This document shows, piece after piece, positions 907 through 29,882 of a DNA stretch of 31,973 nucleotides; positions within the stretch are counted from its first letter, which is position 1; every line of letters starts with the position of its first letter. Source of the DNA: a virus (taxonomy: Duplodnaviria > Caudoviricetes). Both the position numbers and the translations under genes were made by a program. The stretch covers positions 1-31,973 of IMG/VR virus record IMGVR_UViG_3300010376_000096; one strand, given 5' to 3'. A model generated the notes under the pieces. That model saw only the letters and a program-made list of their open reading frames with translations. It was not told the origin of the DNA and did not search any database.

Positions 907-1335
907 ATGAAGATTCGGCTTTTTCTGCTTCTGGCTCTCATGGCGCTGCCGCAGGCAGCGCCTGCTCAAACACACGACCCGTGTACACAAGCCCCTCGGG
1001 TCTCCATCCCCATCTCCATCACCACCTCGACGAAGATCCTATCCGGCGTTCAAGGAAAAAAGAACTATCTCTGCACCCTCCTCCTTGTTCCCTCTGGGCC
1101 TGTGAGCATCTCTGTCGTCGAGGGCACCGGGGCACTCTGCGGCACGAACACGAAGGCCATCGTGGGCTCGACTACGGCTGCGAATGGGATGAACATCGCA
1201 GCCGGGCAGATCCTGAACTTCGGTGTGGGGCTGCTGAGTTTCGGCGCCGGCACATCCCCGGGCGCTGATGTGTGCATCCTCTCGTCCTCGGGGACAGTGG
1301 AGATGGCGGGCGCCGCTTTGATCTCGCAATATTGA
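907..1335 (+). CDS. Signal-peptide-bearing beta-rich protein, 4 Cys
   Basis: GGAGGA SD before the ATG; N-terminus MKIRLFLLLALMALPQAAPA-Q (basic, hydrophobic, AxA cleavage site); resembles ORF 7889-8236. Confidence 0.8.
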   Translation: MKIRLFLLLALMALPQAAPAQTHDPCTQAPRVSIPISITTSTKILSGVQGKKNYLCTLLLVPSGPVSISVVEGTGALCGTNTKAIVGSTTAANGMNIAAGQILNFGVGLLSFGAGTSPGADVCILSSSGTVEMAGAALISQY

Positions 1336-1362
1336 TCGCCCACAGCGCAGCGGAGTAATCCT

Positions 1363-2898
1363 TTGGACGCCCAGACAAAAATCAGTCTTGGGGAACTTGT
1401 ACGCCTCTGCGCCGTGGACTCGGACCTCTACGCTCGCTACTTCTTCCCGAAGGCGGCGCGGCAAATCAGTCCTCCTTTCCTGAAAGAAGTGTGGTATGAT
1501 CTCGAGAATCCAGCTTCTCGCTTCGTCAATCTACGGGTTTTCCGTGGAGGCAGCAAAACCACCACCCTTCGGCTGTTTACCTCGAAGCGGATTGCATACG
1601 GCATATCGCGAACTATCCTCTACATCGGGGCCTCCGAAGCCCATGCGACCCGGAGCGTTCGATGGCTCCAGAGGGCCATCGCCCGACGAGACCTAACCGG
1701 TGCGAACACTCAAACTCCGTTTGCTCAGACATTCGATCTCAGGCCGGGGGTGAAATGGTCTGAGACAGAGTTGGAAGTGTATCATGGGATTGAGGAAACC
1801 CCGATATGGGTGCTTGGGGTTGGTATTACTGGCAACATCCGCGGCATTAATTTTGATGATTATCGTCCAGATCTCATCGTGTGCGACGATGTGGTGACGG
1901 ATGAAAACGCCGCCACGACCGAACAGCGCGAGAAGATCATCGACCTCGTCCTCGGCGCGGTGATGAATTCCCTCGCCCCCTCCGCGGACGCACCCAATGC
2001 GAAAATGGCGATCCTTCAGACCCCGATCAACTCTGAGGACATTTCGGCGCTGGCGTCGAAGTCGCCGAGCTGGAAAACCTCCACCTTCGGATGTTGGACA
2101 GAGCAGTCGAAGGACTTCCCGCTTGAATTCCAGAAGAGTGTTTGGGAGGAGCGTTATCCGACGGAAGAGCTCCAGAAGCAGAAACAAGCCGCTATTGCCC
2201 TGAATAAACTATCCACCTTCCTCAGGGAAATGGAATGTAAAATCACGGCGCCGGAACTCTGTCCCCTCAAAGCCGACTGGCTCCAATACTACGATGAGCT
2301 TCCTCGAGGCGGAATGACCGTCCTGGCAATTGATCCCGTCCCACCCCCTTCCGATGTGGCCCTTGCGAAGGGCCTTTCAGGCCGAGATTGGGAAGCCCAG
2401 ACCGTCTGGCGGAGAGTGAAGGGGGAATACTACCTCGTCGACCTAGCAGTGAATCGTGGGCATGAGCCGAACTGGTCTGTCACCACCGCGATGGAGTTGG
2501 CGCTTCGTCATGGCTGCGCGAGGATTGTCGTCGAGAGTATTGCGTATCAGCGAACGCTCGAGTGGTTGTTGAAAAAAGAGATGCAGCGCCGCGGGATCTA
2601 TTTCGTCATCACCGACACCTCCGAGATTTCAAAGCGTACCTCTCGATCCAAACATACTCGGATTGTCAATGTGCTCAGTGGGCCAGCAAGCCAGCGGCAC
2701 ATCCATGTTCGGAAATCCCACACCGCCTTCATCACCCAGTGGACTGAATACCGTCCCGGAATCGGGCATGATGATATTCTCGACAGCTCTTCCCTCGCTA
2801 TTGGATCAATCGTCAACCCCTTCCTCGAGCTGGCTGTAGATGAATATGGGGATGATACGGGAGTTGAGAAGGTGAAATTCAATCGAGGGTGTCCATGA
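1363..2898 (+). CDS. terL: Terminase large subunit
   Basis: Walker A-like FRGGSKTT, RG..RPDLIVCDD Walker B, nuclease motifs LAIDP and HDDILDS; TTG start with upstream GGAG; directly before the portal. Confidence 0.92.
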   Translation: MDAQTKISLGELVRLCAVDSDLYARYFFPKAARQISPPFLKEVWYDLENPASRFVNLRVFRGGSKTTTLRLFTSKRIAYGISRTILYIGASEAHATRSVRWLQRAIARRDLTGANTQTPFAQTFDLRPGVKWSETELEVYHGIEETPIWVLGVGITGNIRGINFDDYRPDLIVCDDVVTDENAATTEQREKIIDLVLGAVMNSLAPSADAPNAKMAILQTPINSEDISALASKSPSWKTSTFGCWTEQSKDFPLEFQKSVWEERYPTEELQKQKQAAIALNKLSTFLREMECKITAPELCPLKADWLQYYDELPRGGMTVLAIDPVPPPSDVALAKGLSGRDWEAQTVWRRVKGEYYLVDLAVNRGHEPNWSVTTAMELALRHGCARIVVESIAYQRTLEWLLKKEMQRRGIYFVITDTSEISKRTSRSKHTRIVNVLSGPASQRHIHVRKSHTAFITQWTEYRPGIGHDDILDSSSLAIGSIVNPFLELAVDEYGDDTGVEKVKFNRGCP

Positions 2899-2911
2899 GC
2901 GGCCACCGAAG

Positions 2912-4888
2912 GTGGCAGCGCAGCAGAGTGTTCGTCCCATGCCCGGTATGACAAGAGAGATCCCGAAGGGATCTCCACTCCACCAGAAGATTATTTCGAT
3001 GCTCACGGCGCGGATTAGGTTTGCGGAACGCGCCCGCGCGAAACAAGTGGAAAAGTGGCAGAAAGCCGAGGAGAGGATCCTTGCTTACATCCCGGAGACG
3101 GATATCGACGCCTCCCGCCGGGGGAAGAGAGATCGGGAAGGCTATCAAACCTACACAACTCTCCAGCTCCCCTATTCTTACGCGCTGACTATGGCAGCGC
3201 ACACCTATCTCACCTCCGTCTTCTTCTCCAGATCCCCTGTTCATCAATTCCAAGCCCGCCATGGTGAAGGCGAGCAGCAGGTCCAGGCCGTCGAGGCCCT
3301 GATCGGCTACCAAGTCGAAACGGGCCTGATGCTGGTCCCCTATTACATCTGGGTCATGGACTGCTGTAAGTATGGAACGGGGATCATCGCAAACTGGTGG
3401 CAGGACGAGATAGTTCAGTTCTCCCAGATCGCAGAGGTCACTGATCCCTTGAAAGGGAAGACATCGAAGGTCCAGGAATCCATCCAGGTCCCAGGATACC
3501 GAGGAAATAAACTCTTCAATGTCAGTCCTTTCGATTTCTACCACGACCCTCGCTTTCCCCTCTATGATTTCCAAAAGGGCGAGTATTGCGCGCGCCGTTT
3601 TGTCCTGGGCTGGAACGAGATGATCCGGCGCCGGAACCTTGGCTACTATATGAACACCGAATTCGTCACGTCCCGCTTCGCTCCCTCCCAACTCGTGAAC
3701 ATGGGATCGTCGATCCTCGAGCGCCCCGAGATCCCCGGCTTCATCCTCGACGCGGAGGACCAGGGCCATCCGATGGCTTTCTACGTGTACGAGGTGTACG
3801 TAGATCTGATGCAGAAGGAATGGGGTCTCGGGGACTCGGAGTATCCTGAAAAGTGGGTCTTCACCATCACGGGCGACTTGTCATTGATAATCGGAGCGCA
3901 GCCCCTCGGTGCCGCCCATGGGAAATTCCCATTTGATGTCATGACCGCGGAGATCGAGGGCTATGGACTCTGGGCAAGAGGAATTCCGGAGGTTGCTCGA
4001 GATATCCAAAACACTCTCGACTGGCTCATCAACACACATTTCTACAACGTACGAGCTTCTCTCAACAATCAATTCATCATCGACCCGTCGAAAATTGTTA
4101 TCCGAGATGCAGAGGATGGAGGTCCAGGCTTCATCTATCGACTCCGCCCTGAGGCGTATGGAGGAGATATTCGAAACTTCTTCTATCAGGTCCCTGTTCA
4201 AGACGTTACCAGAACCCACATCGCGGACATCGAAACGGTCTTCGATTTCGGGGAGAAGGTAACGGGCATCAACGATCAAATGTTCGGCGCCCTCGCGGGC
4301 GGGCGGAAGACAGCGACGGAAGTCAGAACGTCCACTGGCTTCGGAGTCAATCGCCAGAAGACCCTCGCCGAGTGGTGTTCCGCGATGGGGATGTCTCCTC
4401 ACGCCACGAAGCTGGTCCAACAAAGCCAGCAGTGGTTTGATGATGAGTTCGAACTGCGGATTATGGGGAGCCTGGCGAACGATGCGCAGCGCTTCATCAG
4501 TGTAACGCCCGACATGATTTCAGGCTTCTACGATCTGGTTCCCGTCGACGGCACACTCCCCATCGACAGGCTGGCGCTTGCTAACCTGTGGCAGCAGATC
4601 CTCGGGCAAGCGCGGCAAATTCCCCCGCTCATGCAGCAGCTCGATTTTTGGAAGCTCTTCGCCTATATCGGGAATCTCTGTGGCATCCGGAACTTCAATC
4701 AGTTCCGCGTGCAGGTGATGCCACCTGGGGCAAACCCGAACCTGCAGGGGAATGGGAATGTGGTACCATTACCGATTGGTGGCAGAGGACAGCAGGCGAT
4801 GGCGGGCGCGATGAACTCCGGCGGCACGTCCCCTGCGGGACTTGATCTATCCTCCTCCCAACCTAACCTGGGTGGGGGTCCATTCTAA
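2912..4888 (+). CDS. Portal protein (P22/SU10-like)
   Basis: 658 aa after terL; CKYGTGI, SPFDFYHDP, EKVTGIND..G...RKTATEV motifs typical of podovirus portals. Start could be ATG 2939. Confidence 0.88.
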   Translation: MAAQQSVRPMPGMTREIPKGSPLHQKIISMLTARIRFAERARAKQVEKWQKAEERILAYIPETDIDASRRGKRDREGYQTYTTLQLPYSYALTMAAHTYLTSVFFSRSPVHQFQARHGEGEQQVQAVEALIGYQVETGLMLVPYYIWVMDCCKYGTGIIANWWQDEIVQFSQIAEVTDPLKGKTSKVQESIQVPGYRGNKLFNVSPFDFYHDPRFPLYDFQKGEYCARRFVLGWNEMIRRRNLGYYMNTEFVTSRFAPSQLVNMGSSILERPEIPGFILDAEDQGHPMAFYVYEVYVDLMQKEWGLGDSEYPEKWVFTITGDLSLIIGAQPLGAAHGKFPFDVMTAEIEGYGLWARGIPEVARDIQNTLDWLINTHFYNVRASLNNQFIIDPSKIVIRDAEDGGPGFIYRLRPEAYGGDIRNFFYQVPVQDVTRTHIADIETVFDFGEKVTGINDQMFGALAGGRKTATEVRTSTGFGVNRQKTLAEWCSAMGMSPHATKLVQQSQQWFDDEFELRIMGSLANDAQRFISVTPDMISGFYDLVPVDGTLPIDRLALANLWQQILGQARQIPPLMQQLDFWKLFAYIGNLCGIRNFNQFRVQVMPPGANPNLQGNGNVVPLPIGGRGQQAMAGAMNSGGTSPAGLDLSSSQPNLGGGPF

Positions 4889-5187
4889 TGCCCCCCCACG
4901 AGGATGAAAAACACAGCCTCAAACTAGCGAGCAAGCTACGGCCCCTGACAGCCTTGGAGGGCTGGAAGATCTATATCTCCATCCTCGACGAGCATATCAA
5001 CACGAAGGTGAATGCAGTTCTAAGCCCAGGGGGAGGGATTGACGGCGTGTTGAAATCGGAAGCAGATAAGGGGGCGATTATGGGATTGCGTCTCGCAAGG
5101 GGGATTGTCGGCAGTATTCTACAGGATGCCGACGCGATCAGTAAGAAGTACGCGGGTTCCGACATGGATCTAACGGGAGATGAATGA
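4888..5187 (+). CDS. Small protein between portal and scaffold
   Basis: Overlaps the portal stop; EGW..Y and KGAIMGL helical pattern; position typical of this phage architecture. Confidence 0.7.
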   Translation: MPPHEDEKHSLKLASKLRPLTALEGWKIYISILDEHINTKVNAVLSPGGGIDGVLKSEADKGAIMGLRLARGIVGSILQDADAISKKYAGSDMDLTGDE

Positions 5188-6131
5188 TGGGTGATCTTCC
5201 CACCGAAGGTGGGCCAGTGGATGCGGGCGCTGGAGAGTCTAGCGACCCCTTCACCCTCCCGACCGAATTCAACACTATGGGCGACCTGGATGGGGTCGAA
5301 ATTCCCGGGGAGGCCTCACCTCCTGAAACTCCCCCATCCGAGGAAGCGGCACCGACTCGTGCCCCCGCTTCCCCGCCCACTCCTTCTCGCGCTGCGCCTC
5401 CGCAGCCGGGAGCGCCAGCAGCCCCGAAAACCGCCCAGCCGACTCAGGCGCCAGGGACACAACCTCCCCAGCAGCCTCAGCAGCCAGTGGAAGGGACGCA
5501 GCAGGCGCCGGCGAGGATTGGGGCTCCTTCTCCCCAGACCCCGCGTGAACTCCTTGGAGAGCTGCAGCGTTCGCGGAACGACATCGTCTCCGCGCTCGCA
5601 AACGGGCGCTTCAAGGTCGAGCTGCTGAAGGACGAGATCACGGCACTCGAAAACGACGCCGTGGCGGCGCTGCCGAACATCCTCAGTCGCTTGGGCGCTC
5701 AGCTGTACTATGAAGCCGCGACGACCACGATCAATCAGATTGCGAATATGGTCCCGCAAATGATCGCAGGGTACCTGAATGAAAGCAGTCAGAATAATCA
5801 GGCCGTCGACGCCTTCTCAGCTGCATTCCCCCAGATCAACATGCGGGATGCGAGTGTTCAGAACGTCGTGGCTCAGGTTGCCGCGACCTTCCGAAGCATG
5901 AACCCGCAGGTTCCGAGGGACCAGGCGATCCAGTTCGTAGGAAGGTATGTGTGCCAGCAGCTTGGACTTCCATTAAACGCCGCGGGCGCAGCTCGCGGGA
6001 ATGGCCAGCGCGCTCCTCGAGCGCCCGCGTTTTCGCCGGCTGGAGGAGTCGGCCACGGGGCACCTCGGACGCCAGCGGGCCAAGGTCAGGACAACCCCTG
6101 GAGTGGAATGGGGCAATCCTTCGACGAATAG
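5184..6131 (+). CDS. Capsid scaffolding protein
   Basis: Acidic and Pro/Gln-rich N-terminus, helical core, directly upstream of the major capsid gene. Confidence 0.7.
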   Translation: MMGDLPTEGGPVDAGAGESSDPFTLPTEFNTMGDLDGVEIPGEASPPETPPSEEAAPTRAPASPPTPSRAAPPQPGAPAAPKTAQPTQAPGTQPPQQPQQPVEGTQQAPARIGAPSPQTPRELLGELQRSRNDIVSALANGRFKVELLKDEITALENDAVAALPNILSRLGAQLYYEAATTTINQIANMVPQMIAGYLNESSQNNQAVDAFSAAFPQINMRDASVQNVVAQVAATFRSMNPQVPRDQAIQFVGRYVCQQLGLPLNAAGAARGNGQRAPRAPAFSPAGGVGHGAPRTPAGQGQDNPWSGMGQSFDE

Positions 6132-6140
6132 GAATGAGTC

Positions 6141-7385
6141 ATGACTGGTGCAGTCGCTGGGCTGCGCGGAACGGGCGATTGGGGACCGGATGAGCGCCCC
6201 ACCGACTTCCGCGAGTCAATCCTTTTCTACAACCCGAACGGCACGGCGCCCATCTTCGCCCTAACAGGGAAGGCGGGTAAGAAGACGGTCAACGATCCCC
6301 AGTTCCAATGGTGGTCAGAGCCGAATACGCTGTGGCGCGCTGCGACCTCCGGCGCCCTCGTGGCCACCGACACCACAGTCACCATCGTGTCAGCCGATCC
6401 CACGAACACCACCGCCGGCGCCGTGTGGTCGTCCGCCCTTCATCTGAAACCTGGAGATGTGCTCCTGGTCGAGGGTGCGGCGGATGTGGTGGATATCACG
6501 ACCCTCGAGCGCATCCAGGTCCAGAACGTATTGAGCGACACCCAGTTCGTCGCGCTCCGCGGCGTGCAGGGTACGACGCCGGGCGCCATCGCCTCCGGCT
6601 CAAATCTGACGAAGATCGGATCGTCCTTTGCTGAAGGCACCGGCGCACCTACCGCCGTGTCCCGGAACCCGATCGAATTCAAGAACTACACCCAGATCTT
6701 CAAGGACACGTATGAGCTGACGGGCACCGTGAACGAGACGTTCGCCCGTACCGGGAACGCGTGGTCGAATGATAAGAAACGCAAGATGTTCGATCACGCC
6801 CGCGACATCGAAATGGCGTTCCTCTTCAACGGCGCACCATTTCAAACCGTGGGGGATAATGGAAAGCCCCTCCGCTTCATGGGCGGGCTCCGAACGTTCA
6901 TCCCTGCGACGAACACGACAATATACACTGTCCCCACGACAGTGTCAACATTCCTCGACGCCGTGAACCCCATGTTCAACTTTGATACGGAGGGCGGGGA
7001 TACGAGAATCTGTTTCGCCGGCAATCAGGCGATCATCGAGCTGAACAAGATCGTCCAGGCTTCGACGAACCTTCGCATCAACTTCTCCCAGGAAATCAAA
7101 ATCTACGGTCTTGATTTCAAGGAGTTCATCCTCCCCCGTGGGAGGTTGTTGCTACGAAGCCATCCTCTCCTGTCCCTCCATGGTTTGTATAGAAAGTCGA
7201 TGTTCGCCATCGACTTCGCCTCCCTGAAGTACGTGTGCATGAAGGGCCGGGACACGAAGGTGAAGGATGATGTGCAGTTGCCGGATGAGGATGTGCGGCG
7301 AGGCTTCGTCCAGACGGACTGTTCTATCATGGTTGACCGAGGTGGCCTGACCTGCGCCTATCTCGGCAATATCTCGTCGACGTAA
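6141..7385 (+). CDS. Major capsid protein (SU10/DUF5309-like)
   Basis: 414 aa; NYTQIFKDTYELTGT, HARDIEMAFLF, RFMGGL motifs; insertion domain (LKPGDVLLVE...LRGVQGT); position after the scaffold. Confidence 0.88.
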   Translation: MTGAVAGLRGTGDWGPDERPTDFRESILFYNPNGTAPIFALTGKAGKKTVNDPQFQWWSEPNTLWRAATSGALVATDTTVTIVSADPTNTTAGAVWSSALHLKPGDVLLVEGAADVVDITTLERIQVQNVLSDTQFVALRGVQGTTPGAIASGSNLTKIGSSFAEGTGAPTAVSRNPIEFKNYTQIFKDTYELTGTVNETFARTGNAWSNDKKRKMFDHARDIEMAFLFNGAPFQTVGDNGKPLRFMGGLRTFIPATNTTIYTVPTTVSTFLDAVNPMFNFDTEGGDTRICFAGNQAIIELNKIVQASTNLRINFSQEIKIYGLDFKEFILPRGRLLLRSHPLLSLHGLYRKSMFAIDFASLKYVCMKGRDTKVKDDVQLPDEDVRRGFVQTDCSIMVDRGGLTCAYLGNISST

Positions 7386-7411
7386 GTCGGCGCGAAAGGC
7401 GGGTTGGGTAC

Positions 7412-7451
7412 GGAGGGTGCCCCACACCCTCCCTCTTCGAGGGTAGGAGGG
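7412..7451 (+). promoter_or_regulatory. Intergenic hairpin(s) overlapping the anti-SD/SD of the next gene
   Basis: GGAGGGTG(7412-19)/CACCCTCC(7425-32) stem; CCCTCC is also complementary to the SD GGAGGG(7446-51). No U-tract. Confidence 0.5.
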
Positions 7452-7457
7452 ATTCCG

Positions 7458-7823
7458 ATGCCTCGTTCAATTCTCCAAGGCACGCAGATCTATGATAGTA
7501 AGGAAATGCAGAACATGCAGTGGGCGAACTCGCTTATCAATTTGACGGGCGCGTTGGCTCTCACGGCCACCACAATGCCGGTCATCCTGGCGTTCGGCGC
7601 CGCGGCGCCGCAGACGGTGACGCTGCCTCCCCTGACCGGCGTGGGCGCGATGTCGATGACGGATTCTCGGGTCCACGCTCTAATCAACACCTCCGCTTCC
7701 GCCATCACCCTCAATGCCCATGCGAACGATGGGGGCGCCACCGTCGCGACCCTCGCAGCGGGGAGTGTGACTTTCCTCTTCTCCCTCATGAAGCTCGCTG
7801 TGCCGAAGTGGTTCAGTAAGTGA
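7458..7823 (+). CDS. Putative capsid decoration/head-fibre protein
   Basis: GGAGG SD before ATG 7458; QTVTLPP...INTSASAITL...KW beta-sandwich pattern; follows the capsid gene. Confidence 0.6.
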   Translation: MPRSILQGTQIYDSKEMQNMQWANSLINLTGALALTATTMPVILAFGAAAPQTVTLPPLTGVGAMSMTDSRVHALINTSASAITLNAHANDGGATVATLAAGSVTFLFSLMKLAVPKWFSK

Positions 7824-7836
7824 GGTCGGACGAATT

Positions 7837-7868
7837 TGGGGCGAAATAGTGTAGCTATCTCGCCCCAT
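7837..7868. repeat. Palindromic element copy 1: TGGGGCGAAATAG-N4-GCTAT-N2-CGCCCCAT
   Basis: Intergenic hairpin; 26 of 32 positions identical to copy 2 at 27639-27670. Confidence 0.85.
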
Positions 7869-7888
7869 CTTCGAGGGAGGTCCGCGCC

Positions 7889-8236
7889 ATGCCTGGAACA
7901 ACTATCTACGACCCGCCTCGATTAACCACTGCTCTCGTCAACGTGAACACGATCGGGTCGAATATCATTATCCCCGCGAAGCCGGGACAATACATCCGGA
8001 TTTACAAGCTGTGGCTTGTCGCAGCAGCGGCTGTGAACGTCACGATCTCGGATGTGGGGCCGCCGCCGGGGAACATCATCATAAACGATGGTCCGATGCC
8101 ATTTCTCCCCTCGGGCGCCCTTATCCTCGACTACGACACCATCGCGTGGTATAATAGTCAGGTCGGGGCATCCTACGCTCTCATCCTCTCCGCCGCCGTG
8201 CAGGTGAGTGGGAGGATCTACTACACTCAAACGTGA
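7889..8236 (+). CDS. Small beta-rich putative virion protein (no signal peptide, no Cys)
   Basis: GGAGG SD; alternating hydrophobic beta pattern; aligns by eye with the mature part of ORF 907-1335. Confidence 0.75.
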   Translation: MPGTTIYDPPRLTTALVNVNTIGSNIIIPAKPGQYIRIYKLWLVAAAAVNVTISDVGPPPGNIIINDGPMPFLPSGALILDYDTIAWYNSQVGASYALILSAAVQVSGRIYYTQT

Positions 8237-8243
8237 GGCCTCC

Positions 8244-8636
8244 ATGACCTCTCGAATGAACGCATATGACTTCGGAGCCTCGAATGCGAGTGGGGTGACG
8301 CCGCCGCCCATCCCCACGGTCCGAAAGCCCGCTTCATCTCCTGTCATCCCTATCCTGACGACGGACCTCGAGGTGGGCGTGGATACTCGAGGCCAGACCT
8401 CCGTGACGGTCAGTCTGCCGTCCGTCGCGGCGTGGAGCGCTGCGAACATCACCGGCCTCGACCTGGTGATCTATGATATGTTTGGAAATGCAAGCGCCGC
8501 GCCCATCACGCCCGCTCCTGCGGTGGGGGATAGCTTCGACTACGGCACCGTGACTCCTACGATTTTCTCGAACTTCGGTGTGCTCGCCCTCCGGCCCGAT
8601 CCACCGAACAAATGGCTCGTGAGGGGTGTGGGATGA
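8244..8636 (+). CDS. Putative fibre/baseplate-like beta-sandwich protein
   Basis: VDTRGQTSVTVSLPS...IYDMFGNA...GDSFD...SNFG...KW pattern common in phage fibre domains; GAGG SD before ATG 8244. Confidence 0.65.
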   Translation: MTSRMNAYDFGASNASGVTPPPIPTVRKPASSPVIPILTTDLEVGVDTRGQTSVTVSLPSVAAWSAANITGLDLVIYDMFGNASAAPITPAPAVGDSFDYGTVTPTIFSNFGVLALRPDPPNKWLVRGVG

Positions 8637-10573
8637 AGAAGATCCTCCTTGCAGGTGTTGCGCTGCTCGCTCTCGTAGGCACCGCAGGCGCTCAACCCGC
8701 CGGCCAGTGCGCTGCGGGCCAAGTGTGGGCGAACCCAACGTCCTCCGCGGGCCAGTGTCGTCCAGCCGCCCTCGGCGGCGTGGGAGGTGTGTTCGACCAG
8801 AGCTTCGGCAACCTTTTCGGAACGCTGCCTTGGCGGAGCACCAACGGCATCGGAGGGTGGATTGCTTCCGCCGGTCCACAGCTGGGGTCTCCTCCTGGTG
8901 TCCCGGGAGGGCCGGCCCCGGGCTTTCTATACTTCTACGGAGGAGTCAACGGGAACTTCTTCGGCATCGGCGCAGCCCCATCCCCAACTGCGAACCAAGT
9001 CCTCAACTTCCCCGCGAGCCCTCCGGCTGCCGGGCAATCTTTGGTCGTTCAATCCTGGAACGCCGGGACAAGTACGGCAACTCTCCAATGGGCAGCGGGG
9101 GCGCTGCCGAGTCCTCCTGCATCCCCAACCTCTCAGTGGTTCCTTCGAGGCGACGGAGTCTGGTCGAAATCGCTGAACTCGAACGCTGCTGGATCCAGCG
9201 TCACATCGAATCCGACCGCAGGCGCGCAGTCTATGCTCAATCTCTTCCCTGCCGACTCGGGGGCGTCAGGGAATGCTGCTGTCCTCAATCTCTACAGCTA
9301 TTCAAACGGCTTCAACTACGCCGATACTATCAATTTCTGGAACGTGGGTGGGACTGGCGCGGTCCCCGCAACCACCACGACAGGAGGCTCGGTTCCCTTC
9401 ACCCTCGGCCAATTCGCTTGGGGAGGGTATGATACGAGCATTCCTGGTTTCACGGGCAATCAAGCTATCGTTCGAGTTACCGCTGCCCAGGCGTGGTCAT
9501 CCTCGAGCCATGATGCGTTTTATCAGTTCTTTGTAACCCCCATAAACTCGATCAGCACTACCCTTGCAGCGACCTTAAAGAAAGGTTTGTACGTCGGGTC
9601 CACCTCCAATCCCACGGACCCCGGTGTGGGGGTGGTGCAGAACGGACCGCAGACCTTTGCGGGGCTGGCGACGTGTAATTCGACAAGTGATGGAAGTGTC
9701 GCCTCCGTCACAGATTCGACGACGAATAGCTTCGGCGCCGTGATTGCGGGGGGAGGGTCGCTCCACGTCCAAGCATATTGCAACGGCTCCCAGTGGACGG
9801 TATCGGGAGGCGGGACCGCCATCGCGGGCGGGACACCGCCGAACTATCTATCCGGCCTCCTCATGCAGAATACGGGAGGCACGAACACAAACCAGATTGA
9901 TGTGGGCGCTGGCTCGGCGGCGGATAGCGGAAACACCGCCCTCATCAACTTCGTGGGCCAGACGGCGAAGGATCTGACGGTCCTGTGGGCCACGGGAAGC
10001 TCGAGCGGATGTCTTGAAGGCCCTGGAGCGATCGCCGATGGCACGTGGTGGATTTGGTTAATCTCCACAGGTTCCGTGAATGATATCCTGTGTTCTGCGT
10101 CGGCTACCTCTCCCACCATGACCCGACCGGGGGGCACGTACACTCTCAAGCGCCGCATTGGGGCGATTGTGCGAAAAGGGGGCAACAATCTCCTCTTCAC
10201 CCAACTCGGGAACGATTTTCTCTTGAAGGTCCCGCAGCATGATTTCGCGGCGCAGGCGGTGAGTTCGGCTGGAGTTTCGTTCACCTTCACCTCCTTCCCG
10301 AACGGCCTTTCTCTAAAAATCATCGGAAATTCGTGTATCTTCAACCCTTCCCTTACGACATCAATGTTCATCTTCGGTCCGGGTTTAATGAGCCCGGATC
10401 CCATCGCAGGTTACGGCGCCTCGACGATTTGGGCTGGATCGACTAACGGAAATTGTGCCCAGGTCCAAATCTACTCGAACACAACTGGTCAGCTCCGCTT
10501 CGTCAGCACGCGGGCGTCGGGAGATCAGGCGGATTTCACCGTGACGGGCTGGGCGGACACGAGGGGACAATGA
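8633..10573 (+). CDS. Tail/head fibre-like protein with N-terminal signal peptide, 8 Cys
   Basis: ATGA overlap at 8633; MKKILLAGVALLALVGTAGA-Q signal; fibre motifs FLRGDGVW, IAGGG..VQAYCNGSQW, YTLKRRIGAI and terminal GWADTRG; Gly/Ser/Thr-rich. Confidence 0.8.
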   Translation: MKKILLAGVALLALVGTAGAQPAGQCAAGQVWANPTSSAGQCRPAALGGVGGVFDQSFGNLFGTLPWRSTNGIGGWIASAGPQLGSPPGVPGGPAPGFLYFYGGVNGNFFGIGAAPSPTANQVLNFPASPPAAGQSLVVQSWNAGTSTATLQWAAGALPSPPASPTSQWFLRGDGVWSKSLNSNAAGSSVTSNPTAGAQSMLNLFPADSGASGNAAVLNLYSYSNGFNYADTINFWNVGGTGAVPATTTTGGSVPFTLGQFAWGGYDTSIPGFTGNQAIVRVTAAQAWSSSSHDAFYQFFVTPINSISTTLAATLKKGLYVGSTSNPTDPGVGVVQNGPQTFAGLATCNSTSDGSVASVTDSTTNSFGAVIAGGGSLHVQAYCNGSQWTVSGGGTAIAGGTPPNYLSGLLMQNTGGTNTNQIDVGAGSAADSGNTALINFVGQTAKDLTVLWATGSSSGCLEGPGAIADGTWWIWLISTGSVNDILCSASATSPTMTRPGGTYTLKRRIGAIVRKGGNNLLFTQLGNDFLLKVPQHDFAAQAVSSAGVSFTFTSFPNGLSLKIIGNSCIFNPSLTTSMFIFGPGLMSPDPIAGYGASTIWAGSTNGNCAQVQIYSNTTGQLRFVSTRASGDQADFTVTGWADTRGQ

Positions 10574-11589
10574 AGACCTTCACAGCTCTCGCTCTCCTTA
10601 CGGTCCTGGTGGGCGCTGTAGGCGCCCGTGAGGCGGGGCGTCCCGACGATCGGAATGTGTATGGCCTCCCGGATATCAACACCGCCGCAGGTAGTTTCGG
10701 CCCGATTCAATGGTCTGCTGCCGGGAAGATCCAAGTCTTCCCTTCGAATGTTCCGTCAATTGCATGGTTCGTAGCGGTAGGGCAATCGCACATCGTTAAT
10801 GTATCCGTCCCTCCTCTTACAACATACTACTTCCCCACAAATGGTGCGAAGTGCATCAATCTCTCCCCGTATAACGGCAACTACTACATCGCCTCCGACC
10901 CTGTCATCGGAGCTACCATTCAGGTCAATGGAGCCGATCTCGGATGGTTGAGCAGGTTGTGTGATCAGCTGATTTCAGGAACGGGGGGTGCAGGTGGGAA
11001 GTATGGAACGTCCGGCGTTGGCTTGATCACGGTGGGCATTGGAGGGTCCTCCGTATGTGAGTGGGCGCCGGTTTCCTCAGCCGCCCCGTGTCCGGCGGGC
11101 TCTACTCTAGGAAGAACGAACCTCAGACTTCAGATCGCAGCGCAATGGCTCACTACCCTCGGCATCACGCCGCGAGCATGGCTATACCAACAAGGTCAGG
11201 CGGATTGTGTTGGGGGGATTTCTCTAGCAACCTACGCCTCGAACCTCCGTGCTGTGATCTCGTATGAACGTGGGCTGGCGGCAGCTCGAGCGAATGACCA
11301 GTGGATTATTTCTCAAGACACCTACAATCAAACTAGTGGGACGTTCGGCAACGGTGTGCATGGCGGCGCGAGTCCCCCCTTCACCTGCCCCGATACCATT
11401 GCCCAGGCAGCAACGAACGTCGGCGGCGATACACATAACTTCGTCGGTCCGAATATGGACGCCATTCCAGGGGGTGGGGTAGCGAATACCTACACCGACG
11501 GCGCTCATTACACCTCCGTGACGGGGAATATCTGGGCCGCGCAGCAATGGTCGAGTTCGATCATCAACACCTGTGGGAGTGCCTGCTGA
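10570..11589 (+). CDS. SGNH-family (sialate O-acetylesterase/SASA-like) hydrolase with signal peptide, 8 Cys
   Basis: ATGA overlap at 10570; MKTFTALALLTVLVGAVGA-R signal; GQS(H), GIGGSS, QQGQAD, DGAHY motifs correspond to the GQSN/QGESD/DxxH blocks. Confidence 0.8.
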   Translation: MKTFTALALLTVLVGAVGAREAGRPDDRNVYGLPDINTAAGSFGPIQWSAAGKIQVFPSNVPSIAWFVAVGQSHIVNVSVPPLTTYYFPTNGAKCINLSPYNGNYYIASDPVIGATIQVNGADLGWLSRLCDQLISGTGGAGGKYGTSGVGLITVGIGGSSVCEWAPVSSAAPCPAGSTLGRTNLRLQIAAQWLTTLGITPRAWLYQQGQADCVGGISLATYASNLRAVISYERGLAAARANDQWIISQDTYNQTSGTFGNGVHGGASPPFTCPDTIAQAATNVGGDTHNFVGPNMDAIPGGGVANTYTDGAHYTSVTGNIWAAQQWSSSIINTCGSAC

Positions 11590-12341
11590 TGGACCGTGAT
11601 ACTGCAGTCTCACAGATTCAGGAAAATATGGGCTTCCGCACGGACCTGACCCAGTCCATCATCAACAACCTCCAATTCCAACAAGATGAGCTGGAAAAGG
11701 GAGATACTCTGCCGTGGTGGCTGCTGCAGGAGGATCAGTCCTTCGTGATCAATCCTCCGAATCCCCCGGTGGCCACTCCTCAGGAGTATCCCCTCCCTTC
11801 AAACTTCATCAAGGAGTCGGACAGCCAAGACGGGAACTTGCGCTTTTACCAAAATCAGCCGGGGCCTGCGGTCTACCTGAAGAAGTTCGACCTGAAGCAA
11901 GCGGAGCAGTTCTTCTTCGGTCCGAGGAAGGTGTGGTGGCAGGGGAACGTGGAGATAATCCAGTCGGAGGATACGAGTTTCACTCCCGGCACCCCCGCCG
12001 CTTACGTCCTTCGAAAATCCACCATCCGGATATATCCCGGCCCTGACAAACAATATAACCTCACGTGGTCATACTTCACACATGACCTCCCGGTAGGTGG
12101 GGCGAATACGGTGAATGGGTGGTTGACGAATGCGCCGCAGCTCCTCATCGGACTCGCGGGGAGGCGGATGGCAATGACCGCTCGAGATCCCGATGCCACG
12201 GCGCTGTTCAACGTTATTCTCTACGGAAACCCCCAGGGGCTGGATATGCCGAACTCTCGAGGAGCGATTAAGGCCTTCCAGGCCCTCCTTTATGAAAGAG
12301 AGATTGCGGGCCGCTCGTTCCATATGGGGGCGCGACTGTAA
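11589..12341 (+). CDS. Head-tail adaptor / tail tubular A-like protein
   Basis: TGATG overlap; EYPLPSNF, GTPAAY...IRIYPGPD..Y, NGWLTNAPQLLI motifs. Confidence 0.75.
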   Translation: MDRDTAVSQIQENMGFRTDLTQSIINNLQFQQDELEKGDTLPWWLLQEDQSFVINPPNPPVATPQEYPLPSNFIKESDSQDGNLRFYQNQPGPAVYLKKFDLKQAEQFFFGPRKVWWQGNVEIIQSEDTSFTPGTPAAYVLRKSTIRIYPGPDKQYNLTWSYFTHDLPVGGANTVNGWLTNAPQLLIGLAGRRMAMTARDPDATALFNVILYGNPQGLDMPNSRGAIKAFQALLYEREIAGRSFHMGARL

Positions 12342-13306
12342 TGGGCCTCGAATCTGCAACATACATAGCCGGTCTGGTTCCAGGGAACCCGCCGTCCTCT
12401 GATCTCGAGAGCCAGGGAGCGGACCACCTCAGGCTGATTAAGAGTGTTTTGCAGAATACGTTCCCCGGCGCTGCGGCGCCATTCTATCTCCCATCCGCTC
12501 CTCCCGTCAACACCGTCGCTCTGACCATCGCGCATCAAAACGCTCTCGTCACCATCGACACGACGAGCGCGGTGCAGAATGTAACCCTCCCGGCGCTCAC
12601 GGCGGTGAATGCGGGATGGAGCTGTCGGCTTATCAAATTGAATACGGGGACAAATCCATTCTTCATCCTCCCCTCAGCGGGGACGATCCAGAGTGGAGAG
12701 TATGCTGGATTGAGCAAGGCGCGGCGCTGCATTCCCGGTCATATTACGGAGGTGATATGGTCCGGCACGGCGTGGTTTGCGATGAGAGTTCCGAGGGTTC
12801 CTGTGGGCTCGATCATCACCTGGAGCGGGAGCGTGGCGCCGCCGACGGGATACGAGCTCCCGAATGGGCAGATTCTGAATGCCGCGAACTACCCCGAATA
12901 CGTAGCTGTAATGGGAGCGGGGAACACGTTCGATGTGAGAGCGAGGGTTCTCGCGGCGCCAGATGCAGGCGCTGGCATCTGGACGGCCGCCGTCGTCGGC
13001 TTCTTCCTCGGTGAGATATCTCATACCCTCACCACGAGCGAAGTCCCCCAGTTGGGCATTTCGGGCTCCGCCTCCGTATCCTCCGGAACCATTACCGCTT
13101 CCACTTCTGCTCACGATCAAGGTGGGACGTTCGGTCCGCAGGTAGGTGGTGCCAGCCATACGAATGATGGCGGCAACTCATCCGTGACCATCAACGACAC
13201 CCGCGCTTGGTCCGTGTCCGGCCTCACGACGAACTCTGGTGGAGGTGGAGCGCATAATAACCTCCAACCCACCCTCGTCCTCAACAAACTTCTCGTTGTC
13301 GAATGA
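12341..13306 (+). CDS. Tail fibre with tail-collar domain
   Basis: N-terminal ESATYI..L...NP......QGADHLRLIK anchor; VPVGSIITWSG..PPTGYELPNGQ collar motif; C-terminal GGGAHNNLQP. Confidence 0.85.
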   Translation: MGLESATYIAGLVPGNPPSSDLESQGADHLRLIKSVLQNTFPGAAAPFYLPSAPPVNTVALTIAHQNALVTIDTTSAVQNVTLPALTAVNAGWSCRLIKLNTGTNPFFILPSAGTIQSGEYAGLSKARRCIPGHITEVIWSGTAWFAMRVPRVPVGSIITWSGSVAPPTGYELPNGQILNAANYPEYVAVMGAGNTFDVRARVLAAPDAGAGIWTAAVVGFFLGEISHTLTTSEVPQLGISGSASVSSGTITASTSAHDQGGTFGPQVGGASHTNDGGNSSVTINDTRAWSVSGLTTNSGGGGAHNNLQPTLVLNKLLVVE

Positions 13307-13631: not shown

Positions 13632-13936
13632 TGGCGAAAGGTCACAACGAAAATCCTGACAGCGGGTATTCTCATTTCCACGAAAGTGGAGAGAAGAGCC
13701 CGCACGGAGGGAAGCTCGTGGGTCACGTTCCCAGCGCGAGTGCCGGACATGGCAAGAATGGCGAAGCTCCCGGCCATAAGACAATCGGGAAGCGGCAGAT
13801 GCCGCAGAGACGGGAAATCCCGTCTGGAGATAAGCCGCCGGCGATGAACAACGATAGCATGGAGGAGCCCGGCACGATGGATATGGGCGGGCAGTCCATG
13901 CTCGGTTGGCACGAGAACCCGGGGAAAGCGCCGTGA
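13631..13936 (+). CDS. Small disordered His/Gly/Pro-rich hypothetical protein
   Basis: GGAG SD, TGATG overlap upstream and GTGA overlap with the endolysin. Confidence 0.6.
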   Translation: MAKGHNENPDSGYSHFHESGEKSPHGGKLVGHVPSASAGHGKNGEAPGHKTIGKRQMPQRREIPSGDKPPAMNNDSMEEPGTMDMGGQSMLGWHENPGKAP

Positions 13937-14874
13937 GGATTGTCATATCCTCAGGTCACGGCGCCAAGGTCCGCGGCGCGAAGGGCTATCTCGATGAGGT
14001 GGACGAGGCGCGCCGCGTTGTGGAGGAGGTTGCGGTCTTGCTCCGCAATCTGGGAGTGGAGGTGAAGACATTCCACGACGACACTTCCACCACCCAGAGC
14101 CAGAACCTCAAGACCATTGTGGACTACCACAATGCTCAAGCACGTGAGTATGATGTGAGCGTTCACTTCAACGCCTATCAAACCACATCGAAGCCGATGG
14201 GATGTGAGGTGTTGTACGTCAGCCAAGGCGAGTTGGCGGCTGCTGTGTCGATGGCGATGTCCGAAGCGGGAGGACTCGTAAATCGGGGCGCCAAGAAGCG
14301 CACGGACTTGTACTTCCTCAACAACACCAAAAAGCCGGCGATTTTGCTTGAGGTGTGTTTCGTCGACTCCTCCACCGACGCGAACCTCTATCGGGCGAAT
14401 TTCTCCGCCATCTGTGATGCGATCGCAGGAGTTGCCACTCCTGTGAACGCTGCAGTCCCGATCGATCCCGAGGACCAGACGCAGAGCCCAGCTCCAATCC
14501 CCTGGAACCAAACCGACATCGTGTGTACGAAGTTTGGAGGGAAGGCAGACCCCAACACCTCGGCCTACGATCCGAAAAAGACCCTAAACGACACGGATAT
14601 GTATGTCGCCCTTCCCTACAAATTCAAGGGCTCTCGGCCGAGGGTAAAGGTGTATAACCGGGAGGTGAACGTGTCCGCCGTGGGGGAGATCTGGGATGTC
14701 GGGCCCTGGAACACGAACGATCCCTATTGGGAAACGAATACTCGACCGCAGGCTGAGACGGGGACGGATATGAGGGGGAGGAAAACGAACAAAGCTGGAC
14801 TCGATGTGTCGCCAGCGATGGATCGAGCTCTGGGGTTGAATGGGAAGGGAAAGGTGGATTGGGAGTTCATATAA
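13933..14874 (+). CDS. Endolysin: Amidase_3 plus C-terminal double-psi-beta-barrel (RlpA-like) domain
   Basis: ISSGHG, DEV, SVHFNA, ILLEVCF Zn-amidase motifs; linker; YVALP...VKVYN...IWDVGPW...GLDVSPA DPBB pattern. GTG start at 13933. Confidence 0.88.
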   Translation: MRIVISSGHGAKVRGAKGYLDEVDEARRVVEEVAVLLRNLGVEVKTFHDDTSTTQSQNLKTIVDYHNAQAREYDVSVHFNAYQTTSKPMGCEVLYVSQGELAAAVSMAMSEAGGLVNRGAKKRTDLYFLNNTKKPAILLEVCFVDSSTDANLYRANFSAICDAIAGVATPVNAAVPIDPEDQTQSPAPIPWNQTDIVCTKFGGKADPNTSAYDPKKTLNDTDMYVALPYKFKGSRPRVKVYNREVNVSAVGEIWDVGPWNTNDPYWETNTRPQAETGTDMRGRKTNKAGLDVSPAMDRALGLNGKGKVDWEFI

Positions 14875-15086
14875 TGAACCCTGGGATTGGAGAGGAGGGT
14901 GTGAAGGTCTTCCAGTCCATGATAGATGGATTGAAGGGCCATCCGGCCTTTTTCATGCTTCTCCTCTTAAATCTCATCTTCCTCGGCTTCATGTACATCT
15001 CGCTAAACAAGACCTACGATCGGACGACGAGAGAGCTCGAGAAGAATGATCTCCTAATCGCGAAGCTGATAGAAAAGTGTAAGTGA
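14874..15086 (+). CDS. Single-TM membrane protein (putative holin or lysis accessory)
   Basis: TAATG overlap with the endolysin; TM segment AFFMLLLLNLIFLGFMYISL followed by a short coiled coil. Confidence 0.6.
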   Translation: MNPGIGEEGVKVFQSMIDGLKGHPAFFMLLLLNLIFLGFMYISLNKTYDRTTRELEKNDLLIAKLIEKCK

Positions 15087-16690
15087 TGCCTGAGATCGAG
15101 ATAGATAATCTGGCCTCCGTGGGTGGTATTGTGGATGTTCCCGCATACCAAACTCCCCCGGAAGCTTGGTCCTTCAACAATAACGTGAGGTATTTTGCGA
15201 ATGGTGTGGAGAAGCTGAAGGGGTGGTCCTCGAGGTTCAATAGCCCCGTGGCTCAGAGTCCGAACTTTATCCTATATGTATCCGCGCCAGCGCAGCCCTT
15301 CTGGCTCTGGGCTTCCCCGACGGATATCTGGGTGTGGGACGGAACCTCAAACACCAAGATCAGCAAAACACCCGGAGCCTACACCGCCCCGAACCTCCCG
15401 CAATGGAACGGGACGATTATAGGTGGCGTTCCGGTGATGAATAATGGGACGGATCCTCCCCAGTTCTGGGCGAAATATGATTCGATCACCCCTCAGCTCA
15501 TGGCCGACTTGACGAATTGGGGAACGCATCCCGACCATCCGGTGACGTGCAAGGTCATACGGAGCTTCCTCGTCTATCTGCTCGCGTTGAATATCACCGG
15601 CTCCGGCGGCGTGTCACCGCATGAAGTCCGATGGTCGAACGAGGCGCAGCCCGGCTCCCTCCCGACGACGTGGGATTTCGGCGACCCCACCCACAACGCT
15701 GGCCGGGTTTTTCTTGGGGATGTGGATTCCGGCCAAATCATGGATGGGCAGGAGCTGGGAGGCCAATTCTTCGTCTACAAGGAGAATTCCGTTTGGAGGT
15801 TTGTGTTCGTTGGAGGAACATACATCTTCCAAGATCAAGTTTTCCTCGAGACTGCTGGGCTCCTGACCGCGAATTGCGTGGCCCTCACGGGGGATGGACT
15901 GAAGCACGTTTTCCTCTCTCAGGATGATTTGGTTCTTCATAATGGCTTTGTGGCTGAGCCGTTGCTGAACCGGCGCTATAAGAGATACCTCTTTAATCAG
16001 CTCCATCCGACGGCATATGTGAACTCTTTCCTCCTCTCGAATCCGCCATATGAGGAGATATGGGTCTGCTATCCGTCTTCGGGCGCCCCCGTGAACGCGG
16101 ATGGGACGATTCCACCAAATCGGGCCCTCATCTGGAACTATCGATATAATGCCATCTCCGAAGCGGACATCTCGTTCACTCGAGGAGCGATTGGAACGTT
16201 CGTCGCCTCCCCAGGAACGAAGTGGGTTGATGCTACGATACCCTGGAACTCCGACATCGATCCGTGGTCCACACAGTTTCGTCGGAAGGTGATCGTGTGT
16301 GATCATACGAACAAACAGTTCTACATGCTCGATGATACCCCGCTTCGAAATGGGGTGAACTTTAACGGTATCCTGCAGAGGTTAGATCTGGGAGTGCTAG
16401 GACGAACACGTCAAGGCGAATGGATCGAGGACTTCCAGCATCGGAAGATGATCCAAAACCTGTGGCCGAAGGTGGTGGCGCCGTCGCCCATCCAAATCCA
16501 GGTGGGATATCAGGATACTCCGAACGGTCCGATAAGGTGGAACGCTCCGGTCACCTTCGATCCAAACACCCAGATCAAGGTCGATGGGACGTTCGGGCAA
16601 GGAAGGTCGATCGCGCTGCAGTTCTCGTCTCTGGCGGATTTCCGTCTCGATGGCTATAAGATGGATCTGGCAATAGCAGGTAAATTCTGA
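15083..16690 (+). CDS. Tail nozzle / DNA stabilisation protein (P22 gp10-like beta-propeller)
   Basis: 535 aa, beta-rich, VRWS, FFVYKENSVW, EIWVCYP, ALIWNY motifs; position in the tail module. Start 15083 or 15086. Confidence 0.8.
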   Translation: MMPEIEIDNLASVGGIVDVPAYQTPPEAWSFNNNVRYFANGVEKLKGWSSRFNSPVAQSPNFILYVSAPAQPFWLWASPTDIWVWDGTSNTKISKTPGAYTAPNLPQWNGTIIGGVPVMNNGTDPPQFWAKYDSITPQLMADLTNWGTHPDHPVTCKVIRSFLVYLLALNITGSGGVSPHEVRWSNEAQPGSLPTTWDFGDPTHNAGRVFLGDVDSGQIMDGQELGGQFFVYKENSVWRFVFVGGTYIFQDQVFLETAGLLTANCVALTGDGLKHVFLSQDDLVLHNGFVAEPLLNRRYKRYLFNQLHPTAYVNSFLLSNPPYEEIWVCYPSSGAPVNADGTIPPNRALIWNYRYNAISEADISFTRGAIGTFVASPGTKWVDATIPWNSDIDPWSTQFRRKVIVCDHTNKQFYMLDDTPLRNGVNFNGILQRLDLGVLGRTRQGEWIEDFQHRKMIQNLWPKVVAPSPIQIQVGYQDTPNGPIRWNAPVTFDPNTQIKVDGTFGQGRSIALQFSSLADFRLDGYKMDLAIAGKF

Positions 16691-18263: not shown

Positions 18264-18272
18264 GAGATGTAA

Positions 18273-19433: not shown

Positions 19434-19440
19434 GGAGGCC

Positions 19441-21017: not shown

Positions 21018-21018
21018 C

Positions 21019-29870: not shown

Positions 29871-29882
29871 GCCGAGATCCTT

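Follow-up and report, generated by a model that had tools for sequence, protein, structure and literature searches.

The window analyzed in this study is the whole of IMG/VR virus record IMGVR_UViG_3300010376_000096, a linear stretch of 31,973 bases that is ~70% complete by the record's own estimate. It comes from an uncultured, short-tailed SU10-like podophage. Among cultured phages, Microcystis phage Mel-JY34 and Vibrio phage VS-ABTNL-3 come closest by major capsid protein (MCP), with only 39–41% identity. Three genes of its structural region, referred to below by their first positions as 907, 8633 and 10570, encode proteins with predicted Sec-type leaders and even numbers of Cys residues. 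In the textbook view, tailed phages are assembled entirely in the reducing cytoplasm. The portions of the literature searched, with subscription journals mostly outside, contained no paper in which tailed phages are described as having Sec leaders on their fibres or on proteins of their structural modules. The structural region contains the following genes, where a slash marks a predicted cut.

106-864, + strand: TerS-like helix-turn-helix protein (Pfam and PHROG family scans)
907-1335, + strand: small jelly-roll protein of predicted exported type, 142 aa, four Cys; between the TerS-like gene and TerL; leader 1-20, cut predicted at APA/QT
1363-2898, + strand: TerL (phrog_38)
2912-4888, + strand: SU10-type portal (PF23899)
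5184-6131, + strand: scaffold-like protein (family scans)
6141-7385, + strand: SU10-type MCP (PF17236)
7458-7823, 7889-8236 and 8244-8636, + strand: three small leaderless, Cys-free genes without family, the last one coupled to 8633
8633-10573, + strand: tail-fibre-like receptor-binding protein (predicted), 646 aa, eight Cys; leader 1-20 (AGA/QP), fibre-like shaft
10570-11589, + strand: SASA/SGNH-like carbohydrate esterase (predicted), 339 aa, eight Cys; leader 1-19 (VGA/RE), GQS and QGxxD motifs
11589-12341, + strand: SU10-type adaptor (PF24175, E 3.3e-5, a weak match under the family cut-off)
12341-13306, + strand: ordinary leaderless tail fibre with collar domain (family scans and relatives)

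Each of the three genes is preceded by a Shine-Dalgarno-like site. The ATG of 907 follows GGAGG, that of 8633, with GAGGGG in front, lies within an ATGA that overlaps the stop of 8244-8636, and that of 10570 lies within an ATGA that overlaps the stop of 8633-10573. Both of these overlaps had been reported in the first-pass annotation and are real. In addition, the stop of 10570-11589 overlaps the likely start of the adaptor gene (TGATG, 11587-11591), for which alignment with the adaptors of Mel-JY34 and of G111, an Acidobacteriota contig described below, makes ATG 11589 the most likely start. Because start and stop overlap at each junction, 8244, 8633, 10570 and the adaptor gene are all translationally coupled, in this order.

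The predicted leaders are MKIRLFLLLALMALPQAAPA/Q for 907, MKKILLAGVALLALVGTAGA/Q for 8633 and MKTFTALALLTVLVGAVGA/R for 10570. All three have the layout of Sec-type substrates of signal peptidase I, with a positive n-region, an uncharged h-region of ~8–15 residues and small residues at -3 and -1, all within the first 15–35 residues. The best 10-residue Kyte-Doolittle windows of their N-termini scored 3.11 (907), 2.89 (8633) and 2.65 (10570), while those of the other 29 of the 32 open reading frames (ORFs) compared in the window scored 1.76 or less, in agreement with the earlier claim of three leader starts. A crude rule-based leader test was passed by two of the 31 annotated genes, 8633 and 10570. 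When the same rule was applied to all six frames, 12 of 937 possible starts passed, and three of these 12 belong to 8633 and 10570. The leader of 907 failed the rule solely through its ban on Pro at -2 (APA/Q); on the grounds of its n-, h- and c-regions, the N-terminus of 907 is taken here as a putative leader. A lipobox (L-x-x-C, with Cys at +1) is absent, as no Cys is found at or adjoining the predicted cut sites of the three proteins. By count, 907, 8633 and 10570 contain 4, 8 and 8 Cys, respectively, and 7458, 7889 and 8244 contain none, as had been stated before.

Over its last ~250 residues, 8633 is homologous to proteins from the tail regions of Bradyrhizobium, Rhizobium, Microcystis and Pseudomonas phages. 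In tblastn searches with this C-domain, the E-values were 1e-15 to 5e-7 in four of five phage records and 1e-3 in the fifth. The best match (1e-15) was a tail-region protein of a Bradyrhizobium phage, and a "putative tail protein" of a Rhizobium phage was also matched. The similarity of 8633 to the fibre encoded by L052, a 7.5-kb viral contig, was found at an E-value of 7e-46 without composition correction and of 9e-21 by tblastn; BLASTP with composition correction missed it. Single-protein scans of viral contigs with 907, 8633 and 10570 gave no relative, but alignment-based scans did. For the C-domain, the scan used the three-sequence alignment A5, the five-sequence alignment A4 being too diverse, and identified 42 viral loci, of which L053 is the L052 contig again. 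Among the other 41 loci (36 distinct), only L055 and L063 begin with a leader (MRQAMQRILTLIILFIFPCISLAA/SDD). The moderately hydrophobic stretch of L059, which lies behind an acidic N-terminus, was not counted as a leader, and L078 and L094, like the L052 fibre, are truncated at their 5' ends.

Cys459 and Cys486 of the window protein fall in two columns of a MAFFT alignment of 43 sequences. Four of these sequences, those of the window, L052, L055 and L063, have Cys at both columns, and the remaining 39 have G/F, A/I, A/V, G/A, A/A and similar residues there. The window, L055 and L063 all bear a leader together with the Cys pair. A quick maximum-likelihood tree required two gains of the Cys-pair state, and only 2 of 500 label shuffles required as few. 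In this tree, L055 and L063 were sister to the leaderless L058 (support 97), and the window and L052 were sister to the leaderless L054 (support 82–87, not starred). Leader and Cys pair have most likely been gained together at least twice, as judged from this alignment and tree. Of all arguments for use of the leader and for contact of this domain with an oxidising compartment, such a two-fold gain is the strongest.

The remaining Cys residues of 8633 come in pairs as well, with two in the first 30 residues of the predicted mature protein and two private to the window. Two Cys of 8633 bracket a 42-residue motif that recurs twice in the leader-bearing protein P0004 (65 and 53% identity). The Cys-bracketed motif (residues 342–398) is followed by a predicted Mtd-like shoulder and a jelly-roll tip (394–646). 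A model of residues 330–646 (alignment A6) had a pLDDT of 78.5, and of ~90 for residues 394–646. Its first part matched the N-terminal part of Bordetella phage Mtd (Z 8.4, rmsd 2.6, 96 residues aligned), and its jelly-roll tip matched best the tip of the Bdellovibrio bacteriovorus fibre Bd2133 (PDB 8ond and 8ok3, Z 9.0 and 8.8; at Z 9.0, rmsd 3.3, 108 residues aligned). Different from 8633, Bd2133 is bacterial and not phage-encoded, and the two are 12% identical over these ~108 residues; Bd2133 is a cell-made fibre-like adhesin of the phage-fibre type. As a lead only, the first 400 residues of 8633 resemble viral fibre-shaft clusters (Atlas; Mtd_N and PTL_trimer cluster, score 0.92). Residues 21–400 had no Pfam or PHROG match, and a sequence search of the PDB with 8633 gave no match at E <= 1. 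By homology and predicted fold, 8633 is a tail-fibre-like receptor-binding protein.

Leaderless fibres with the same C-domain include WAX24466.1 (Bradyrhizobium phage ppBjS10J-1), QIG67268.1 (Rhizobium phage RHph_TM3_3_3), XAI95125.1 (Microcystis phage Mwe-JY13) and those of the 39 viral loci. Their C-terminal ~250 residues are homologous to those of 8633 (27–38% identity), and their genes are at the distal end of tail modules. Different from 8633, they have neither a leader nor Cys at the two paired columns, and 8633 also has the P0004-type Cys-bracketed motif. Beyond the last ~250–370 residues, the mature N-terminus of the L063 fibre had no significant homology to leaderless fibres, and we therefore make no claim of a retained attachment domain.

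If the leaders were unused, translation would start downstream, or the hydrophobic N-termini would serve as structural helices in the cytoplasm. A public gene caller indeed begins 8633 at Met201 (a 446-aa product, P0003), by which the leader and the first 200 residues are lost. The frame of 8633 is, however, open from 8612, and its homology to the L052 fibre begins at residue 104. Moreover, Shine-Dalgarno-like sites precede the leader ATGs, leaders persist in diverged relatives of quite different sequence, and the joint gain of leader and Cys pair speaks against unused leaders. We regard this explanation as very improbable. An Arg-rich alternative frame is also open at 8626-9432; third-position GC fails to separate the two frames, while the homology to L052 does.

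One relative of 10570 was found, P0002, with which it shares 37% identity across 97% of the query length. P0002 matched PF03629 (SASA) with 27.1 bits (E 3.8e-6, profile positions 4–216 of 226), above the cut-off of 24.8 bits. The two proteins, 10570 and P0002, agree fully in the GQS and QGxAD blocks, and the spacing of the D..H motif differs by one residue. The catalytic motifs of the SASA type are the Ser in GQS, a QGxxD block and a C-terminal Asp/His. A sequence search of the PDB with the esterase profile gave no match at E <= 1. Three of the Cys residues of 10570 align with Cys of P0002, and a fourth, in a TC motif, was matched by eye and is not one column in the MAFFT alignment. Of the remaining Cys, two lie together in an insertion missing from P0002 and two in a C-terminal CxxxC. 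Thus annotated through its relative, 10570 is a predicted SASA/SGNH-like carbohydrate esterase, with the SASA branch assigned only through P0002.

Similar to the window, the L052 contig encodes a fibre, the esterase P0002, an SU10-type adaptor (PF24175, E 7.5e-21), a collar fibre and a 681-aa protein, in this order. The fibres end in WIDTRGQ in L052 and in WADTRGQ in the window, and the hydrophobic N-terminal segment of P0002 lies 20–35 residues from its annotated start. Although the gene order is kept, the fibre C-domain and the esterase are the only detectably similar parts of the two, and for this reason fibre and esterase appear to behave as a cassette of two genes, which in both of these diverged backbones has its place immediately upstream of the adaptor. 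In addition, genes of GDSL-type esterases are found 1–2 kb downstream of the leader-bearing fibres of L055 and L063 (E 5e-12 and 2e-11, respectively).

907 has no Pfam or PHROG family match, and its database relatives numbered three, one of which is the protein itself. Proteins identical to 907 and 10570 are also encoded on a contig of 45,979 bases. The alignment-based scan of viral contigs identified 22 viral loci of the 907 family, 19 of them distinct. The first-pass annotation had considered that homologs might generally start downstream of the hydrophobic leaders. An N-terminal hydrophobic segment was present in all 22 viral open frames (best 10-residue Kyte-Doolittle window >= 2.13), and leaders were also found in P0002 of L052, P0004, P0006 and P0007. 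The starts of L006 and L015 are uncertain, and their hydrophobic segment may be an inner membrane span. Four Cys within the last 125 residues are present in 21 of the 22 loci, and L020 is without exactly the first two. This joint loss in L020 suggests that Cys 1 pairs with Cys 2 and Cys 3 with Cys 4 in the 907 family.

The AlphaFold2 model of 907 (alignment A3, pLDDT 91.9) is an all-beta sandwich. Foldseek found no match in the PDB at E <= 0.001, the best E-value being 1.1e-3, and VIA-align gave generic jelly-roll matches with a top Z of 7.8. These included endospore-appendage subunits, viral capsid protrusions, TNF/C1q-like domains and carbohydrate-binding modules. XepA of PBSX and YomS of SPbeta were matched as well, at Z 7.5 and 7.0, as was a phage cement protein at Z 6.8, but many jelly-rolls score at Z 6–7.8 and the values of XepA and YomS are within the stated noise band of the tool. 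XepA and YomS are described as exported late-region phage proteins in the available part of one source (PMC6834076), and the available part of another counts XepA among non-classically secreted proteins (PMC1266369). The modeled fold of 907 is that of a small jelly-roll, which implies no function. 907 as a paralogue of its leaderless neighbour 7889 was ruled out by an hhalign probability of 1.3%.

In L020 and L023, the gene of the 907 family is directly upstream of TerL, as in the window. It is directly after the portal gene in L008, directly before it in L018 and directly upstream of an SU10-type adaptor in L021. In L012, it lies between a capsid/protease gene and Neck1, together with four further leader-bearing genes, and in L010 after the portal gene, together with three further ones. 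None of the other window proteins was matched in the 4 kb around any of these 22 loci. Because no other window protein recurs near its relatives, 907 is, on this comparison of loci, a separate family that moves alone between phage backbones. It represents an unnamed jelly-roll family, predicted to be exported, that is defined here. The earlier suggestion of one system of three genes was not supported as it stood, as only 8633 and 10570 travel together.

In head, neck or tail modules of other uncultured phages, three to five genes in a row begin with Sec-type leaders (L012:1653-7013, L010:2627-6188 and L063:6295-9257). Genes of such runs were without Pfam family, except for one neighbour in L017 with a PEP-CTERM motif (E 1.5e-7). 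The 325-aa leader protein of L063 (6848-7825) and the N-terminal extension of the 907-family member of L006 (3059-4357) have in common the motif SLPLPxGASTAAKQPALGTAGSAS.DVIT.QGI, which was spotted by eye.

The hydrophobic segments might instead be uncleaved signal anchors, by which the proteins would remain fixed in the inner membrane and project into the periplasm with most of their mass, for instance as parts of a lysis or exclusion machinery. In L006, L015, L024 and L026, the hydrophobic segment is long or internal and a clear AXA site is missing, and the position of the segment in P0002 also fits an anchor. The leaders of the window, however, are short (18–20 residues) with small residues at -3 and -1 (APA/Q, AGA/Q and VGA/R), and most relatives have AQ-type sites. 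Anchors are thus an unlikely explanation.

A scan of one genome per prokaryotic species identified 24 relatives of 907, of which 23 were, by title, in Acidobacteriota/Terriglobia/Acidiferrales records and one was in a 5.5-kb contig labeled Saccharibacteria. Moreover, one of 401 sampled Acidobacteriota genomes contained a match to the MCP of the window that was 54% identical (E 7e-140), on the 46.9-kb contig G111. The identities between the window and G111 were 48% for TerL, 49% for the portal, 53% for the MCP in this comparison, 33% for the adaptor, 35% for the fibre N-terminus and 38% for a protein of phrog_3287. As both the relatives of 907 and the MCP match of G111 fall in this phylum, the host is likely an acidobacterium, probably of soil, with the reservation that phage contigs can be misplaced by the binning of metagenome-assembled genomes.

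Occurrence of the 907 domain in 23 Acidobacteriota genome records, like the variable slots that the leader genes occupy (see below), would be expected if the three were ordinary morons, i.e., host-derived secreted genes that serve lysogenic conversion and have no role in the lytic cycle. 10570 was, however, not found in the 301 + 5 Acidobacteriota genomes searched with this query, and the genomic 907 domain sits in phage-like elements with terminase and beta-helix genes. GC and codon-position GC of the leader genes resemble those of their neighbours, the starts at 8633, 10570 and 11589 overlap stops without own promoter spacing, and family scans of the window, with the record ~70% complete, turned up no integrase. 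This test was made on overlaps and GC. We consider morons quite unlikely.

All eight genome loci inspected (L029, L030, L031, L033, L034, L038, L044 and L046; e.g., L029:920-10598) contained a recurrent element. It encodes a ~106-aa MASNPNYVKKQ.. protein, a 390–680-aa protein ending in a 907-type domain, a long ORF after it (~530–870 aa) and a ~500-aa terminase-like protein that begins MxxKxDKS... Four of the eight loci also encode a MPKRVIDFDAMWGSDKLAAC.. protein, and five encode a MPAYSNSTPP.. protein of 123 aa. Pfam was run on one of these loci, L029, where the 907 domain has a terminase gene and a beta-helix gene as neighbours within a phage-like element; the long ORF contains the beta-helix, and the last protein is a terminase large subunit. 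The element looks like a small prophage or satellite.

The genes downstream of the tail fibre, and those of the minus strand, are as follows.

13906-14874, + strand: amidase endolysin (PF01520, E 2.4e-24; phrog_435)
14859-15086, + strand: holin-like membrane protein, 75 aa, hydrophobic stretch at residue 31; putative holin
15083-16690, + strand: virion protein of phrog_3287 (family scan)
17397-27636, + strand: run of internal/ejection-type proteins, the last of 2,205 aa (family scans)
minus strand: primase/helicase and split family-A DNA polymerase (family scans)

Export, cleavage and oxidative folding of all three proteins, as proposed in the first-pass annotation, is highly probable in our view: relatives of each protein have retained the leader, the 907 family has retained four Cys in 21 of 22 loci and the fibre Cys pair occurs with the leader. 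907, 8633 and 10570 would be exported via Sec, cut by signal peptidase I and oxidised by a Dsb-type system. By analogy with the esterase spikes carried on some virions, fibre and esterase would form gear that binds and de-O-acetylates surface polysaccharide. In canonical lysis, holin holes breach the inner membrane ahead of the spanins that break the outer membrane, and in vitro, finished particles can still take up fibres and decoration proteins, as with T4 fibres, Hoc/Soc and lambda gpD. 8633 and 10570 could then meet the cytoplasm-built particles once holin lesions merge the compartments and before the outer membrane ruptures. The grounds for such docking after holin action are the whole-fibre architecture of 8633, the conserved place by the adaptor, the translational coupling and the particle-binding ability of fibres and decoration proteins; we put it close to, and a little under, an even chance. 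907 might likewise be a periplasm-folded add-on of the head or neck, which is the weakest step. Taken as a whole, we tentatively propose, as something short of probable, a two-compartment assembly. In it, a periplasm-made fibre, an esterase and perhaps a head add-on would be plugged on between the opening of holin holes and the rupture of the outer membrane, the leader and Cys-pair state would have arisen repeatedly in soil phages, and the 907 family would mark Acidobacteriota phages with runs of exported head/neck proteins.

Alternatively, the proteins could be exported and never join the particle, acting instead on the envelope of the infected cell late in infection. This alternative is possible, and we regard it as rather doubtful. 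The lectin and the esterase would bind and de-O-acetylate the receptor polysaccharide and thereby mask or destroy it, with a superinfection block, less loss of progeny on debris or a looser exopolysaccharide for egress as the outcome, and 907 would be a further factor in the periplasm or close to the membrane. Precedents are lambda Lom and Bor, T5 Llp, Cor, P1 Sim and periplasmic NanS-type esterases. Topology favours it in that virions are built in the cytoplasm, and so does the PEP-CTERM protein among the neighbours of 907 relatives.

A number of further observations weigh against a place of the three proteins on the virion, or against parts of the reading given above. All three leader genes occupy variable slots, as an envelope role would predict. 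In the closest relative, G111, the space between MCP and adaptor is filled by eight genes that are unrelated and leaderless, TerL is not preceded by a leader gene and 907, 8633 and 10570 have no counterpart, and in Mel-JY34 the slot holds a glycosyltransferase-like protein, a small protein and an 864-aa protein. As proof of a structural role, their location inside the virion operon, pointed out in the first-pass annotation, was not supported. No virion-attachment domain was found on 8633 or 10570, nor a partner; 10570 is almost entirely catalytic domain, with no room for an anchor. The ordinary leaderless fibre at 12341-13306 implies that 8633 is not needed for a complete tail. In all eight inspected Acidobacteriota loci, the 907 domain is the C-terminus of 390–680-aa proteins without N-terminal leader, which start with MRIKIIG.. 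or have this motif 15–25 residues in, and L015, the one relative of the long type read whole, has an inner hydrophobic segment. These long proteins may be membrane-tethered, which fits an envelope protein better than a virion part. Even Cys counts are weak by themselves, as MCP, portal and TerL also carry 4–7 Cys. Leader and Cys are not always together either: the L055 esterase has 7 Cys and no leader, and the L063 esterase has a leader and 1 Cys. Finally, 10570 itself matched only part of the PF03629 profile, with 17.0 bits (E 0.0047), below the 24.8-bit cut-off, and the placement of its catalytic His/Asp is uncertain.

Other points argue against action on the envelope alone. Lambda Lom is an outer-membrane barrel, and T5 Llp and Cor are lipoproteins; different from these, 907, 8633 and 10570 have no lipobox or barrel. 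Without either, the products would be periplasmic in a diderm unless secreted further, and only nascent glycan is found there. The genes are coupled to structural genes without separate promoter-type spacing, 8633 keeps a whole fibre architecture and, in two backbones, the cassette is found at the same position next to the adaptor.

Two known systems each resemble a part of the proposed assembly. Virion-borne O-antigen esterase spikes are described in the available parts of three sources (PMC10743462, PMC6393563 and 10.64898/2026.07.31.742079). Similar to these spikes, 10570 is a predicted SGNH-type esterase beside a fibre in a podophage tail module, and its presumed substrate is an O-acetylated surface glycan. 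Examples are gp63.1 of phage G7C, which is carried on gp66, and the esterase domain of the epsilon15 tailspike; these spike esterases are leaderless and cytoplasm-made, with an N-terminal particle-binding part. 10570, in contrast, bears a leader, and no particle-binding part was found in it. The g3p of phage M13 folds with disulfides in the periplasm. According to the available part of one source, this receptor-binding virion protein of filamentous phages is made with a Sec signal peptide (PMC8310372). Sec export and periplasmic disulfides are likewise predicted for 8633. Different from filamentous phages, which are assembled at the membrane and extruded, the window phage is a lytic, tailed phage with terminase, portal, endolysin and a holin-like gene.

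If fibres, enzymes or decoration proteins of tailed phages were routinely matured in the periplasm, the Sec and Dsb functions of the host would help to set host range. Receptor-binding proteins would be mis-described wherever gene callers or annotators cut off or overlook the leader, as with 8633, and disulfide-stabilised fibres may account for the stability of particles in acid soils. The joint gain of leader and Cys pair in both leader-bearing lineages would be a clean natural experiment that makes the question testable. This study also provided an Acidobacteriota host lead for an uncultured phage group, in addition to the unnamed jelly-roll family.

Among the remaining genes, those at 7458-8636 had no relative in the comparison loci, G111 included, and no database search was made with them. 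They lie between MCP and the predicted exported fibre; head decoration, fibre socket or chaperone are candidate roles. The lysis genes (13906-15086) are placed amid structural genes, and the endolysin consists of Amidase_3 and a C-terminal part of ~120 aa without assignment. No spanin-like lipoprotein was seen in the window, and G111 has two lipobox-type small genes beside an M15 peptidase and a holin.

The six consecutive proteins of the ejection-type run (17397-27636; 288, 386, 247, 133, 144 and 2,205 aa, 3,403 residues in all) contain no Cys, which would fit passage through an oxidising periplasm. An FtsK-gamma winged-helix domain (PF09397, E 5.9e-22) was matched in the 2,205-aa protein, the C-terminal part of which resembles DarB-type and giant phage proteins. 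Finally, the family-A DNA polymerase is split over two minus-strand ORFs, 28904-29752 and 30239-31894, that are ~490 bases apart. The upstream polymerase ORF has an N-terminal uracil-DNA-glycosylase-like domain (PF03167, E 1.1e-13), and a 120-aa ORF of the + strand (29616-29978) overlaps the gap between the two halves.

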